A model generated the notes under the pieces. The model saw nothing but the letters and a program-made list of their open reading frames with translations. It had not been told where the DNA came from and did not search any database. From positions 1,395,585-1,459,584 of the forward strand of contig NZ_FXBS01000006.1 in assembly GCF_900178005.1 (NCBI RefSeq): DNA of 64,000 nucleotides, given 5' to 3'. How positions within the stretch are numbered: position 1 is the stretch's first letter; each line of letters opens with the position of its first letter. The translations under genes were made by a program, and so were the position numbers. This stretch comes from Tuberibacillus sp. Marseille-P3662. Lineage in GTDB: Bacteria > Bacillota > Bacilli > Bacillales > Sporolactobacillaceae. Positions 32,615-38,585 of the stretch are shown piece by piece.

Positions 32615-32815
32615 TTGTCAAGCAATCGTTCGATCATGCCGAATCAGCAATCTGACAATAATAAATATGAGATTGCCGAGGAAAACAATATTCCGTTGAA
32701 GGAAGGTTACAACGGTGATATTACAGCTGAACAGGCAGGTAAAATTGGCGGCGAAATCGGCGGTAACAAAGTCAAAGATCTCATTCGCCAAGCTGAACAG
32801 AATTTAAAAAAGTAA
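32615..32815 (+). CDS. Alpha/beta-type small acid-soluble spore protein-like (divergent), paralog A
   Basis: The 66-aa product has KYEIAEE...AEQAGKIGGEIGG.KVKDLIRQAEQNL. This resembles the two-helix alpha/beta SASP pattern (K.EIA.E, GGEI, AEQ.L). A strong AAGGAGGG RBS is followed by a TTG start. A terminator lies at 32826-32859. Confidence 0.5.
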   Translation: MSSNRSIMPNQQSDNNKYEIAEENNIPLKEGYNGDITAEQAGKIGGEIGGNKVKDLIRQAEQNLKK

Positions 32816-32825
32816 CCCTCCAACG

Positions 32826-32859
32826 AAAGGATGCCCCTTAAATTTAAGGGACATCCTTT
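32826..32859 (+). terminator. Terminator after SASP-like A
   Basis: The inverted repeat is aaaggatgcccctta-aattt-aagggacatccttt. Confidence 0.65.
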
Positions 32860-32866
32860 GTATAGC

Positions 32867-33184
32867 CTAATAGCGCCTACATCCTGAACTTCCACGTCTT
32901 CTTCTTCGACCGGTACTTTTATGACCCGGTGACCTGTGCCCACTTTTTCTGCGGCCAGGGCTTCTGCGACCCGGACTTTTCCGACCTGGGCTTCCTGGGC
33001 CTCGTCTTCCTGGACCTGTCCGTCGAGGTCGGCTTCTGCGAACCGGGCTGGCCTTTTTCCGACTTGTTTTCCTACCCCCTGTACATCTTCGCCTTGATGA
33101 GCGTTTGGATTCAACTGGATCATTATACAGATAAGAATGATCTTCAACCATTAACAGAATCTCATTCATATCATCTTTGAACAT
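32867..33184 (-). CDS. CotG-like basic tandem-repeat spore coat protein candidate
   Basis: The 105-aa product starts MFKDDMNEILLMVEDHSYLYNDPVESKRSSRRR and continues with SPGRR/SPGHK-type Arg/Ser/Pro/Gly repeats. A GGAGGGA RBS lies 7 nt upstream. Repetitive DNA leaves two other frames open (32707-33147 and 32929-33180). Confidence 0.5.
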   Translation of the reverse strand: MFKDDMNEILLMVEDHSYLYNDPVESKRSSRRRCTGGRKTSRKKASPVRRSRPRRTGPGRRGPGSPGRKSPGRRSPGRRKSGHRSPGHKSTGRRRRRGSSGCRRY

Positions 33185-33488
33185 AACAGTATCCCTCCAA
33201 TATTATATCTAAGAAGAAATGAGGCTTTTACTAAAATTCATTTCTTGGTAAGCATAATATGACAAAAAATACTTTCAGTTTGGACATTCATATAAGCATA
33301 AAGGATTTTGTACAAATGACATCTTAAGTCATTTGTCATTAATATATAAACAGTTCCTCTCCAATTAAGCAGAAATATTTCGATTGCTCACTGCCTCCTA
33401 TGTCCTCCATTCATTTTGGCTATAGTAACTTACCAATGACCAAATAAGTAAAATAACTATTTTTCAAAGATTTAATCAAATTGTCTAT

Positions 33489-33516
33489 ACCTCTGTCACA
33501 CCATGGTACATATACT
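33489..33516 (+). promoter_or_regulatory. Candidate mother-cell (sigma-K-like) promoter for cotB-like gene
   Basis: It reads AC, then 18 bp, then CATATACT, ending 43 bp upstream of the ATG. It matches the loose sigma-K consensus (AC, 16-18 bp, CATAnnnT). Confidence 0.3.
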
Positions 33517-33558
33517 GCAGTGAAAGCTGTTGAATAGATTTATTAAGGAGGAAACAGA

Positions 33559-34266
33559 ATGAGGAATCACGATTCTATGGAAAAATTATTGGACTATCAA
33601 GGGAAAAATGTAAAAGTTAATTTCGGTGGGCCTGAATCTCGAAGTGGAAGGCTACTAATTGTCAAATCTGACTATCTGGCTATTAATACCGAGCGGGATG
33701 GCGTATGCTATTACCAATTAAAACATGTTAAAGGGGTATCCATTGATTCAAAAGATCATTCACGAACATCAGGAAGACACAATCATTGTTATGAGGAAAA
33801 TGACTTTGTTGAAATATTAAGATGTTTCAAGCATAAAAGAATCAAAATTAACCGAGGCGGTCCTGAGAGTATTGAAGGTGTCTTAAATAATATTTTCGAC
33901 CACCATCTAGAAGTAACAATCAATGATGAGATTATTTTTGTATCCATCTATCATATAAAAAGTGTTAGTCAAATATCCAATTCAAAACATTCAGGGCATC
34001 GAAGATCTTCTCACGGAACAGGTCATAGAAAAAGTCATAGAACAGGTCACAAACATTCCTCTGGTTCAAAAGTATATGATGCCATGAAAAAGGCTGATAA
34101 AAGCGGGACCAGAAAATATATGTACAATGATCCGTCCGAATCTTCCCATTCAAGTCATTCAAAAGGAAAGAAAAGTTCTAGACGTTCACAGGAGTCAAAG
34201 GGCGAGAGACCTCACTGGCATTCAAAACAACGTATGCTTCGTGGAGGATGGATTAAATTATCGTAA
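33559..34266 (+). CDS. CotB-like spore coat protein (two GGPES repeats + basic Ser/His/Lys-rich tail)
   Basis: There is an internal duplication: NFGGPESRSGRLLIVKSDYLAIN...YYQLKHVKGVS and INRGGPESIEGVLNNIF...IYHIKSVS, the CotB N-domain repeat as I remember it. The C-terminal tail is rich in SGHRRSSHGTGHRKSH... (Ser/His/Arg/Lys). A cotH gene lies 2.5 kb downstream. Confidence 0.6.
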   Translation: MRNHDSMEKLLDYQGKNVKVNFGGPESRSGRLLIVKSDYLAINTERDGVCYYQLKHVKGVSIDSKDHSRTSGRHNHCYEENDFVEILRCFKHKRIKINRGGPESIEGVLNNIFDHHLEVTINDEIIFVSIYHIKSVSQISNSKHSGHRRSSHGTGHRKSHRTGHKHSSGSKVYDAMKKADKSGTRKYMYNDPSESSHSSHSKGKKSSRRSQESKGERPHWHSKQRMLRGGWIKLS

Positions 34267-36757: not shown

Positions 36758-36797
36758 CCGAACTCCATCTTATGTATAAGATGGAGTCGACTTCCTT

Positions 36798-37871
36798 TTA
36801 GGTTAGCTTTGATAATTGACTCCTTAAATACTTATTTCTACTTTTGATAAAATTCATGATAAATTGTGGCTCTTCATCATAGGCGTTGATAAATGTCTTT
36901 ATATACGGATCTTGTAGCACATAAGGACGAAGCATTCCGTGGATGCCTTTAATTTGAGGATTTAAAAACTCTGTAGTAAATTGGTCGTTAAGGATATTCT
37001 TAAGGAGTCGACCATAATGTTTTCGAAACGCTGGCACATCCAAAACTCGTGCCGTTAATGTATTATAGCCTTTGATAGGAATATAGTCATAATCCAATTC
37101 TTCACCATTAATATCCCTCCCCCAGGTTGCATCAAAATCCCAAGGGATTAATTCAAATAATCCCGACTCTGTGTCACGGTACAAGGCATAGTTGTGGATA
37201 AACCCATCAAAATTCTGTGTGCACACCACCCCTGATAACCATCGCAAATATTTATCAATGTTGATATATCTCTCTATGTTCTTCTCGAATTCAGAACGTG
37301 ACATCGTATTAATTTTGTAAATTAATTCTTTTAGAAAGATATCATCTTTTTCATGACCTTCTTTTCTGCTATAACCGTCATCAAATGATTGCTTAACATC
37401 ATAATCAATGGGACTCATCAATGAGAAGTTTGCATCATCGTCCTCAGCGTACCAAATGGGGCCATATGATCTTCCCCTAGACTCCAAGAAATGCTTATCA
37501 ACGGACTCAATTTGCAAGTATATACCTTGATAAGCCTCGTTAATAACAAGATTCACATAATGAGTCGACGGAGATAGTACACCTATACTTGAGAAAAAAT
37601 CTAAAGATAACTTATTTCTTAACAATGTTGCATCTACATATTCTGCATTTAGATGAATCGTTCTTTTTTCATCAAAATGACACTGAAAAGATTTCTTTGG
37701 AAACTTGCGAATATGCGCACCTCTGTATCCTATTTCCGCATCATAAATTACATTATCGAAACTAAGGCTAGCTTGAACCATTTGATCAGACCAAATATCA
37801 CTACGTAATTTTTTTAAATCACTTGGAGATATTGAGATATCGTATGTTGGTACTTCTTTTTGAATACCCAT
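36798..37871 (-). CDS. cotH: Spore coat protein H (CotH kinase family)
   Basis: The 357-aa product has the CotH-family pattern (YRGAHIRKFPKKSF...NFDGFIHNYALYRD...WDFDATWGRD). An AAAGGAAAG RBS is present. Confidence 0.8.
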   Translation of the reverse strand: MGIQKEVPTYDISISPSDLKKLRSDIWSDQMVQASLSFDNVIYDAEIGYRGAHIRKFPKKSFQCHFDEKRTIHLNAEYVDATLLRNKLSLDFFSSIGVLSPSTHYVNLVINEAYQGIYLQIESVDKHFLESRGRSYGPIWYAEDDDANFSLMSPIDYDVKQSFDDGYSRKEGHEKDDIFLKELIYKINTMSRSEFEKNIERYINIDKYLRWLSGVVCTQNFDGFIHNYALYRDTESGLFELIPWDFDATWGRDINGEELDYDYIPIKGYNTLTARVLDVPAFRKHYGRLLKNILNDQFTTEFLNPQIKGIHGMLRPYVLQDPYIKTFINAYDEEPQFIMNFIKSRNKYLRSQLSKLT

Positions 37872-38017
37872 CCATCACATCTTTCCTTTGGTTGTTTTTT
37901 TATATAAATATGCTTCTATGTCTTGATATGTCACAATTAAACATCTGCTTGAAAAAAATAATGATATGGATTATAAAGTGGATTGTCTAATTAACGGGAC
38001 ATCTATCACATAAAATT

Positions 38018-38052
38018 AGACCCATCTCCTTCATTGGAGATGGGTCTAGTGT
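38018..38052. terminator. Bidirectional terminator
   Basis: The perfect inverted repeat agacccatctcc-(8)-ggagatgggtct has T-runs on both sides. Confidence 0.7.
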
Positions 38053-38072
38053 GTGGCTCGTTTGTTCAGAGG

Positions 38073-38228
38073 CTAGATATTTGGAAATACCTCTCCTGAT
38101 TGGCGCATATGCTGAAAACGGTCTCTCGCTTGCCGCATAACGGTCGCGCCTGCATTCCTGTTCATCATACAATAAGTGACTGCGCCAATACCGACCGAAG
38201 CAACGACGGGAATCCAATTATTTCGCAT
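38073..38228 (-). CDS. Small hypothetical protein (51 aa), possible small spore or membrane-associated protein
   Basis: Own translation gives MRNNWIPVVASVGIGAVTYCMMNRNAGATVMRQARDRFQHMRQSGEVFPNI. An AGGATGGTGGTGAG RBS region is present. It ends 20 nt before the perfect terminator at 38018-38052. The overlapping track ORF 37987-38217 reads through that terminator and is rejected. Confidence 0.35.
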   Translation of the reverse strand: MRNNWIPVVASVGIGAVTYCMMNRNAGATVMRQARDRFQHMRQSGEVFPNI

Positions 38229-38372
38229 GACAACTCACCACCATCCTTGATATTGGTTCAAGTTAGAACCACTCTTAATTTGGGCCATCTAAACAAAATG
38301 ATGTGAGTGAATCATTTCCATCAATGAATCAATCACATCTAGGAGAAGCTATTCAGTAAGGAGGGATTGCCT

Positions 38373-38585
38373 GTGTCAAGTGATGACTACATCGCGCCGA
38401 GTCAGCCATCTAATAACGACAAATACGACATCGCTAGGGAAAACAATATCCCCTTAAAAGAAGGCTATAACGGTGATCTCACCGCTGAACAAGCCGGCAA
38501 AATCGGCGGTGAAATGGGTGGCGAAATCGGCGGCAATAAGGTTAAAGACCTCGTCCGCCAGGCTGAACAGAACTTGAAACAATAG
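38373..38585 (+). CDS. Alpha/beta-type SASP-like protein, paralog B
   Basis: The product has KYDIARENNIPLKEGYNGDLTAEQAGKIGGEMGGEIGGNKVKDLVRQAEQNLKQ, about 80% identical to paralog A over the core. It has the same AAGGAGGG RBS. The GTG at 38373 (10 nt spacing) is preferred over the track TTG at 38367. A terminator lies at 38600-38634. Confidence 0.5.
   Translation: MSSDDYIAPSQPSNNDKYDIARENNIPLKEGYNGDLTAEQAGKIGGEMGGEIGGNKVKDLVRQAEQNLKQ

Follow-up and report, generated by a model that had tools for sequence, protein, structure and literature searches.

Gene content of the locus

The region described here is a cluster of spore coat genes in a 64,000-nucleotide (nt) stretch of the Tuberibacillus sp. 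Marseille-P3662 genome, referred to below as the window (contig NZ_FXBS01000006.1, positions 1,395,585 to 1,459,584). The cluster encodes a CotH kinase, CotB-like and YwrJ-like coat proteins, a YwrK-like permease, and a small CotG-like protein, and it is bracketed by two genes for small acid-soluble proteins (SASPs). It is this organism's version of the known CotH/CotB/CotG coat-patterning module of Bacillus subtilis and not a new system; no other case in which protein phosphorylation patterns the surface of a bacterial spore is as well understood as that module. The reading that we favor, with a probability of roughly 0.75, is that these genes would form an outer-coat phosphorylation module with a lineage-variant gene order, to which the SASP pair is probably a neighbor by history only.

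Open reading frames (ORFs) were mapped between 30 and 41 kb of the window and analyzed by using Pfam, NCBIfam, BLASTP, profile-profile comparison, AlphaFold2, Foldseek, and custom hidden Markov models (HMMs). The comparison set comprised 80 cotH loci from one genome per species (L001 to L080). An earlier note on this DNA had proposed a coat island of the cotG/cotB/ywrK/ywrJ/cotH type. The ORFs that it listed (cotG-like, cotB-like, ywrK-like, ywrJ-like, cotH, and two SASP genes) were all found (Table 1), and the nature of the island was borne out by Pfam assignments, a PDB match, profile comparison, and the names of orthologs. Its listing had left out two small genes, a 57-amino-acid (aa) ORF and a 51-aa gene, and the true start of ywrK is probably 34684 or 34699.

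Table 1. Features of the coat gene cluster and its immediate surroundings (window coordinates)
Feature	Position	Strand	Basis
SASP copy 1, divergent alpha/beta type, 66 aa	32615-32815	+	Pfam PF00269 (1.2e-14, 54.5 bits); NCBI name
Palindromic hairpin between convergent SASP copy 1 and cotG-like	32826-32859		Inverted repeat, 94% complementary
Mini cotG-like gene, 105 aa, isoelectric point (pI) 12.0	32867-33184	-	Composition, tandem repeat, ribosome-binding site, custom HMM
Candidate sigma-K-like promoter of cotG-like, AC-N17-CATATTAT, 69 nt before ATG	33254-33279	-	Consensus match only
Candidate sigma-K-like promoter of cotB-like, ATACC-N17-CATATACT, 42 nt before ATG	33489-33516	+	Consensus, conserved block
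cotB-like gene, 235 aa; two GGPES modules (aa 1-140), disordered basic Ser/His tail	33559-34266	+	Homologs, AlphaFold2
CotG/ExsB-N-like module in CotB tail, KVYDAMKKADKSGTRKYMYNDPSES	34057-34161	+	CotG-N HMM, reciprocal profile, predicted helix
Conserved small membrane ORF, 57 aa, overlapping ywrK start	34533-34706	+	Homologous ORFs at same position in relatives
ywrK-like gene, ArsB/NhaD-family permease	34645-36057	+	Pfam ArsB
ywrJ-like gene, 226 aa; three Sm-like modules homologous to CotB modules	36077-36757	+	hhalign; PF27152 of orthologs
cotH, atypical Ser/Thr protein kinase, 357 aa	36798-37871	-	Pfam PF08757, PDB 5JD9
Candidate sigma-K-like promoter of cotH, 89 nt before ATG	37961-37986	-	Consensus match
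Strong terminator of 51-aa gene, 13-bp stem	38017-38048	-	Hairpin
Hypothetical membrane protein gene, 51 aa, between cotH and SASP copy 2	38073-38228	-	NCBI WP_176222257.1
SASP copy 2, 70 aa, extra GGEM unit	38373-38585 (start 38367/38373)	+	Pfam (6.6e-15, 55.3 bits)
Terminator hairpin after SASP copy 2, homologous to SASP copy 1 hairpin (74% identical)	38601-38634	+	Repeat analysis

The CotH kinase and the CotB-like and YwrJ-like proteins

The cotH product matches PF08757 over the full length of the profile (positions 1 to 322 of 322; E 2.9e-87, 293.6 bits against a cutoff of 23.8) and Bacillus cereus CotH (PDB 5JD9/5JDA) across residues 7 to 356 (E 9.8e-119), which upholds the earlier identification of the gene. 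NCBI record WP_085524168.1, "CotH kinase family protein," is exactly this product. Residues Asp222 (in NFD) and Asp245 (in PWD) lie 23 residues apart and are kept in all 69 homologs checked. The same spacing separates the catalytic aspartates of B. subtilis CotH, D228 and D251 (PMC7821199), the correspondence being drawn by spacing and motif rather than from a direct alignment to the B. subtilis protein. The literature gives the SKR regions of CotB and CotG as substrates of the B. subtilis kinase.

The CotB-like protein carries GGPES motifs at aa 23 to 27 and aa 100 to 104, and a 20-sequence alignment shows little or no variation at G24, P25, G100, G101, P102, and E103. Its 100-aa tail, which is predicted to be disordered, has a pI of 11.1 and contains 23 Ser, 11 His, and 24 Arg-plus-Lys residues; sequence and composition thus agree with the earlier description of two GGPES modules and a basic Ser/His-rich tail. 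NCBI annotates the Tuberibacillus protein only as "hypothetical." Its homologs bear the name "spore coat protein B" or "spore coat protein," with Pfam PF27152 (YwrJ_3rd); they include, from the B. cereus group, a "spore coat protein" of 149 aa with two modules. A further CotB homolog, in Terrilactibacillus (L081), lacks cot neighbors and is uninformative.

In an AlphaFold2 model built on the 20-sequence alignment, aa 11 to 140 form two helix-plus-five-strand barrels with predicted local distance difference test (pLDDT) scores above 90, and the tail is disordered save for a single helix at aa 170 to 182. In Foldseek searches with the full model, the significant matches, with E values from 1.5e-4 to about 1e-3, were the viral ORF 2x4j and Spt5/DSIF with its tandem KOW barrels. 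A single module matched Hfq of M. jannaschii (E 4e-3; root mean square deviation of 1.1 Å over 51 columns) with a template-modeling (TM) score of 0.82 when normalized to the 57-residue Hfq chain and 0.21 when normalized to the query, ranking 27 to 29 after KOW and Tudor barrels. The Foldseek matches, mostly generic SH3, KOW, Tudor, and Hfq barrels, suggested no enzyme function, and on the strength of the predicted model we take each module for a small barrel of the Sm/SH3-like type.

The YwrJ-like protein had been called a CotB-like paralog. This view found no significant support in pairwise BLASTP (E 0.24) but did hold in an hhalign comparison of profiles built from relatives, which joined the two proteins with 95.5% probability (E 1.4e-8) over three modules. 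The unit that is doubled in the CotB-like protein is tripled in the YwrJ-like protein. Against the local copy of Pfam, from which the PF27152 model is apparently missing, the latter gave only a weak DUF2642 match; positional orthologs in Pseudalkalibacillus, in Scopulibacillus, and on a metagenome contig (52 to 63% identity) carry PF27152 unmarked. Similarity to the N-domains of CotB and YwrJ, on which the earlier note had staked both assignments, was found, as seen in homologs named "spore coat protein B" and in the PF27152 annotation of homologs and positional orthologs.

Gene order in the window and in relatives

In B. subtilis, the order ywrJ, cotB, cotH, cotG corresponds to BSU_36040 to BSU_36070 (PMC7725329), with cotB in the same direction as cotH and with cotG pointing away from cotH, inside its long leader (PMC4130616). 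The island in the window had been called rearranged relative to the B. subtilis cotG-cotH-cotB-ywrJ-ywrK locus, and its order does differ from that given in both publications. The commonest order among the 80 loci is <ywrK <cotG cotH> cotB> ywrJ> (21 loci), together with related forms; ywrJ accompanies cotH in more than half of the loci (50 matching ORFs) and ywrK in about half (42 matching ORFs), neither count being deduplicated by locus. The backbone of the window, cotB>ywrK>ywrJ> <cotH, recurs in seven species-representative loci without a separate cotG, on one metagenome contig, and in L014, where cotG stands beside cotH. The cotG-like gene of the window diverges from cotB, as the earlier note had it, and lies 3.6 kb from cotH; no other locus among the 80 has a cotB-divergent cotG, the gene being divergent from cotH in 61 of them. 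"Rearranged" therefore describes the contrast with B. subtilis and the unique position of cotG but not the backbone, which is conserved and typical of its clade. A single inversion of the four-gene block, starting from an L014-like order (cotG< cotH> <ywrJ <ywrK <cotB), would yield exactly the order of the window.

Because it diverges from cotB, the cotG-like gene of the window lies outside any long cotH 5' leader, unlike its B. subtilis counterpart (PMC4130616). Its unlinking from cotH implies that cotG/cotH transcription need not be nested as it is in B. subtilis. For the closest relatives, three independent short-read assemblies stop at 204 nt (L001), 136 nt (L090), and 74 nt (L089) upstream of cotB, so that a cotB-divergent cotG is neither seen nor excluded in them. 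Three contig breaks just 5' of cotB may reflect repetitive, perhaps cotG-like, sequence at that position.

The SASP pair and the question of horizontal acquisition

Both flanking genes score well above the PF00269 gathering cutoff of 22 bits. The two copies are 79% identical in amino acids and 75% identical in nucleotides and have a ribosome-binding site (RBS), TAAGGAGGGATT, in common. The repeated unit of about 275 bp reaches from 27 nt 5' of the start, with the RBS (85%), to the terminator hairpin (74%), in accordance with the earlier report of SASP-like genes of about 80% identity that share an RBS and similar terminators; the two units lie in direct orientation, 5757 to 5775 nt apart. Synonymous sites are saturated (pS 0.82, dN 0.11), and the duplication is therefore ancient; both copies are under purifying selection. 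The nearest homologs elsewhere (67% and 62% identical) stand in unrelated neighborhoods, for which reason a general SASP-cot linkage was rejected. By these comparisons, the genes are lineage-specific in-paralogs, neither having a closer known relative than the other. In the 80 relatives, the stretch within 8 kb of cotH contains no SASP gene, and no integrase, transposase, or mobile-element gene was found near the island in scans of the window. A local duplication framing the island had been proposed; in-paralogs do bracket it, but because the duplication is ancient, relatives have no such flanks, and mobile genes are missing nearby, "framing" stays a description with no mechanistic tie. The pair would be old paralogs of a forespore DNA-binding protein, functionally apart from the coat module.

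The second copy contains a 12-nt tandem repeat (38495-38534, 3.3 units) that encodes GGEM/GGEI units, one more than in the first copy; such units sit within the second conserved DNA-binding segment of canonical alpha/beta-type SASPs. Judged by eye, EIAEEN and DIAREN in the two copies presumably correspond to the germination-protease site, canonically E-[IF]-A-S-E-F. A regular-expression scan upstream of either gene gave no convincing sigma-G or sigma-F consensus. In the interval that separates the SASP copy 2 terminator from the 3' end of nhaC, TTAATTGCGCT is repeated three to four times at an exact spacing of 21 bp (38642-38712), and the repeats may form a protein-binding array.

A different history would make the five-gene block a horizontally acquired cassette that came to lie next to a SASP gene already present, or recombined at it, with the second SASP copy as a by-product of integration (for example, through Campbell-type insertion of a circle bearing a SASP homolog). 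Composition and context lend this some force. The island has a G+C content of 0.347 against 0.42 to 0.43 in the flanks and is the lowest-G+C 5-kb stretch of the window; the G+C content at third codon positions (GC3) of all four core genes (0.275 to 0.329) is lower than in any of 35 background ORFs (mean, 0.410; standard deviation, 0.031). Direct repeats of the SASP unit bracket the island, and SASP genes adjoin the cluster in no relative. Part of the bias is intrinsic, however, as the cluster is poorer in G+C than its flanks by 0 to 5 points in most other genomes. CotH, CotB, YwrJ, and YwrK all have their best matches in the same family-level clade (Scopulibacillus, 44 to 70% identity) on the same backbone, and att-like repeats are as absent as integrases and transposases. 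Arrival of SASP copy 1 with the island was rejected, its GC3 of 0.418 being host-like and that of SASP copy 2 higher still (0.549), so that neither copy seems to have been imported along with the low-G+C genes; saturation of their synonymous sites would make any such event ancient. The best homologs of the flanking SPFH gene (82%), sought as a trace of a preinsertion state, occur in Aquibacillus and Salirhabdus among unrelated neighbors. Horizontal acquisition is a live but minority explanation, and we consider it unlikely. Apart from the points concerning the CotG module, the locus is an ordinary sporulation cluster for which vertical descent is plausible.

A CotG-type module inside the CotB tail

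The ORFs that diverge from cotH in the 80 loci have an N-terminal module in common, approximately D-I-x-x-L-L-x-x-A-x-E-N-G-x-x-x-[FY]-[LM]-x-N-N-P-x-E. A custom HMM (CotG-N) built from 50 N-terminal hits of these ORFs as seeds and run against 6744 ORFs identified a cotH-divergent CotG-like ORF in 61 of the 80 loci (for example, L013 6918-7772, L051 6896-7846, and L030 6871-7809). Its only significant matches outside N termini were the C-terminal tails of CotB proteins, namely those of the window (aa 177 to 202, E 2.3e-4), Scopulibacillus, Camelliibacillus, a Bacillales metagenome-assembled genome, and Fictibacillus gelatini, with weaker ones in Pseudalkalibacillus. The loci with a CotB tail module are exactly those without a separate cotH-divergent cotG. 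The tails keep the block K-V-x-[DE]-A-x-x-x-A-x-x-x-G-x-x-K-[YF]-[MF]-x-N-[DN]-P, followed by a basic stretch and the end G-G-W-[IVF]-K-L, and the module is also conserved in aligned proteins P0002 to P0006.

The relationship is reciprocal. A profile made from six CotB tail modules matched the N termini of three stand-alone CotG-like proteins, from Camelliibacillus (L011, E 2.5e-9), the window (0.0019), and L014 (0.014). Since the same profile found only about 10 CotB-type proteins among 1.84 billion representative proteins, plus the tail-only protein P0159, the architecture is rare and limited to one clade. P0159 (L007 9401-9871, minus strand; Pseudalkalibacillus sp. A8) comprises 156 aa with SSGKK repeats and a helix-YMWNDP element without a CotB N-domain; its gene is convergent with cotH, which indicates that the CotB tail is able to exist as a separate gene.

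Both forms occur in the window, with the module fused in the CotB tail and present again in a stand-alone mini-CotG. By its sequence, the embedded module looks like a substrate-adaptor fusion. In B. subtilis, CotG termini mediate partner interaction (PMC9765600). Since efficient phosphorylation of CotB by CotH there also requires CotG, which binds to the C-terminal portion of CotB (PMC7821199), a fusion of the CotG module in cis to the CotB substrate would be a sensible evolutionary outcome. The presence of a CotG N-module within the CotB substrate points to this module as an interaction element and bears on how CotG promotes CotB phosphorylation. We suggest only tentatively, and at well short of even odds, that the helix and Y-M-x-N-D-P together may be a CotG-type element that engages CotH or CotB and that this clade has joined in cis to the substrate as a "Rosetta stone." If this is true, Tuberibacillus, with a fused form and a mini-CotG uncoupled from cotH, would be a minimal natural system for dissecting the adaptor.

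The resemblance might also be convergent, Y-[LM]-x-N-D-P in the CotB tail and in the CotG-like protein being a short linear motif selected for CotH docking without fusion or common descent. The module is only about 25 to 35 aa long, some matches cover mostly its six-residue core (in the reciprocal search, aa 16 to 31 only of the window CotG-like protein), and DNA similarity between the two copies in the window is confined to 27 nt around the motif, on which ground a recent duplication of the cotB 3' end as the source of the cotG-like gene was rejected. Yet the similarity extends to an amphipathic helix, D-x-x-x-A-x-x-x-A-x-x-x-G, common to the CotB tails and the L011 CotG-like protein, and AlphaFold2 predicts the segment before the motif to be helical. 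In both HMM searches of the 6744 ORFs, significant matches beyond the N termini of cotH-divergent CotG-like ORFs were to CotB tails only, the weaker matches on unrelated ORFs having E values of at least 0.25. Convergence therefore seems doubtful.

The stand-alone CotG-like reading frame

The small reading frame upstream of cotB encodes a protein with 34 Arg-plus-Lys residues (32%) and 15 Ser residues, in which an N-terminal module with Y-L-Y-N-D-P at aa 18 to 23 is followed by SPGR[KR]-type repeats. At the DNA level, there is an imperfect 15-nt tandem repeat of 3.2 units (75% match), and an RBS, GGAGGG, lies 8 nt 5' of the ATG. The earlier picture of a small, very basic, tandem-repeat protein resembling CotG is confirmed by these features. 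The CotG-N HMM matches aa 3 to 30 (E 5.3e-4, 18.2 bits); no curated Pfam or NCBIfam family matches. The hairpin between this gene and SASP copy 1 is likely a bidirectional terminator.

The CotG-like family has been described as lacking primary-sequence homology (PMC9765600, PMC7725329). On our comparison this statement seems too strong, because the N-module is common to 61 of the 80 loci and because NCBIfam already models the B. subtilis/B. cereus type. Saggese et al. (2016) reportedly wrote of "CotG-like modular proteins." The NCBIfam model, NF047410 (CotG_ExsB_Nterm), has 26 positions; Parageobacillus CotG (L013) scores 39.5 bits against it and was the only match among six divergent members tested, the remainder of the 61 not being scanned.

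Candidate promoters, proposed mechanism, and weight of the evidence

Promoters were sought by a regular-expression scan for the sigma-K-like consensus AC-N15-18-CATAnnnT. It gave one match for each coat gene (cotH, cotB-like, and cotG-like), 42 to 89 nt from the start, and none upstream of ywrK or the SASP genes. The cotB block, ATACC-N17-CATA[TC]A[CAT]T-GCA, is conserved across five genera, occurring also in Scopulibacillus, Pseudalkalibacillus, Camelliibacillus, and a metagenome contig, and similar AC-N-CATATAGT blocks lie 5' of Pseudalkalibacillus cotH. This conserved cotB block is the best evidence here suggesting sigma-K-type late mother-cell expression.

We hypothesize that, by homology with B. 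subtilis, cotH, the cotB-like gene, and its divergent cotG-like neighbor would be expressed from sigma-K-type promoters at a late stage in the mother cell. CotH would then multiply phosphorylate the Ser-rich, basic, disordered regions of the CotB-like and CotG-like proteins. The Sm-like N-domains of CotB and YwrJ would self-assemble, and the phosphorylated proteins would pattern the outer coat. As to its origin, the backbone cotB>ywrK>ywrJ> <cotH would have been inherited in common with Scopulibacillus and Pseudalkalibacillus. The CotB protein of this clade would have taken the CotG/ExsB N-terminal module into its tail, a separate cotG being unseen in the sampled loci of the clade besides the window, and the window genome would have kept or regained a short stand-alone cotG beside cotB.

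Several observations weigh against this reading. The promoter assignments are consensus matches, with phylogenetic support for the cotB one only, and the low GC3 of the core genes could reflect foreign origin rather than vertical inheritance. The CotG-like protein is half the typical CotG size with about three to four imperfect repeats, its E value with the custom HMM is modest, and it does not match NF047410 at E values up to 10. Its product, from any of three possible starts, is absent from a collection of 15 billion proteins, because of which we regard the gene as probably unannotated. That the 105-aa frame is instead nonfunctional, being either an ORF that arose by chance in repetitive, G+C-rich DNA or what is left of a gene in decay, with the fused CotB tail alone supplying the CotG function as in Pseudalkalibacillus, would fit this absence, the overlapping ORFs in other frames, the missing curated family, and the same-backbone relatives without a separate cotG, but it is quite improbable given a strong, correctly spaced GGAGGG, an N-module matched by both the family HMM and the reciprocal tail profile, a sigma-K-like promoter at a sensible distance, a terminator hairpin directly 3' of the stop, and a composition typical for CotG-like proteins.

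The permease, small membrane proteins, and flanking genes

The YwrK-like protein matches Pfam ArsB/CitMHS (E 2e-65), in line with the earlier call of an ArsB/NhaD permease, and scores 336 bits against NCBIfam ArsB, under its cutoff of 457. Because it matches the Pfam family and misses the NCBIfam cutoff, it appears to be an ArsB-fold permease of a separate, cot-linked subgroup; we infer its equivalence to B. subtilis YwrK from synteny only.

The small ORF that overlaps the ywrK start has homologs at the same position in L001 (11146-11301), L003 (11394-11570), L004 (11352-11558), L005, L006, L009, L010, L014, and L088 (9323-9496), and the gene calls of L088 and L090 include it. These single-pass membrane ORFs of 48 to 68 aa have the motif L-Y-x-L-x-K-P, are found in all window-type loci, and are not in Pfam. 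Relatives also precede ArsB copies in a Desulfosporosinus locus. The 51-aa membrane protein has no homolog among the 80 cotH loci, and the GC3 of its gene (0.48) is in line with that of host genes.

The cluster is flanked by an SPFH protein gene on one side and an NhaC antiporter gene on the other (Pfam and NCBIfam). Beyond them lie ordinary housekeeping genes. A cell wall hydrolase gene with LysM and Hydrolase_2 (SleB/CwlJ-type) domains (41479-42042, plus strand), at a distance of 3 kb from the island, is likely another gene for sporulation or germination. A lysine riboswitch (Rfam RF00168, 82.5 bits; 44388-44575, minus strand) lies 5' of a second Na+/H+ antiporter-family gene (42646-44250).

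Comparison with known systems

Both SASP genes of the window exceed the threshold for alpha/beta-type SASPs (PF00269; SspC, PDB 2Z3X) and are so named by NCBI. They differ in several respects: their subgroup is divergent and has GGEI/GGEM repeats inserted into the second conserved region, their direct similarity to SspC is weak (E 0.17), and they form a bracketing pair.

Like members of the CotG-like/ExsB family, the CotG-like protein is small, very basic, disordered, and repetitive and is encoded in the neighborhood of cotH, and by the custom HMM it has the N-terminal helix and [FY][LM]x[NQ][NDE]P. Unlike them, it has few repeats, NF047410 does not recognize it, and its gene is neither adjacent to nor divergent from cotH. 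It also departs from B. subtilis CotG in its length of 105 aa and in being rich in Arg, Pro, and Gly rather than in Lys, Ser, and His.

The closest counterparts are the clusters of Scopulibacillus, Pseudalkalibacillus, and Camelliibacillus (L001 to L010, L087, and L088). Their backbone is identical in order and orientation, the same small membrane ORF precedes ywrK, a sigma-K-like block precedes cotB, and their CotB tail likewise consists of repeats, a YMxNDP helix, a basic stretch, and a GGW[IVF]KL end. Where sequence is available, those clusters have no separate cotG-like gene, whereas the window has one upstream of cotB; the repeat region of the window CotB protein is much shorter, and those clusters lack flanking SASP genes.

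Relative to the B. subtilis cluster (BSU_36070 to BSU_36040), the window has cotH at the far end, in convergent orientation, and a cotG that is divergent from cotB. The CotB-like tail is short and His-rich and contains a CotG-N-like module, and the protein has two N-terminal modules where B. subtilis CotB has three. The likeness is nonetheless broad: the CotH kinase, CotB, CotG-like, and YwrJ proteins and the ArsB-family permease are all present in the window too, with GGPES N-modules and a Ser-rich basic tail in CotB and a basic, repetitive CotG-like protein, and late mother-cell promoter expression is presumed for the window genes likewise.

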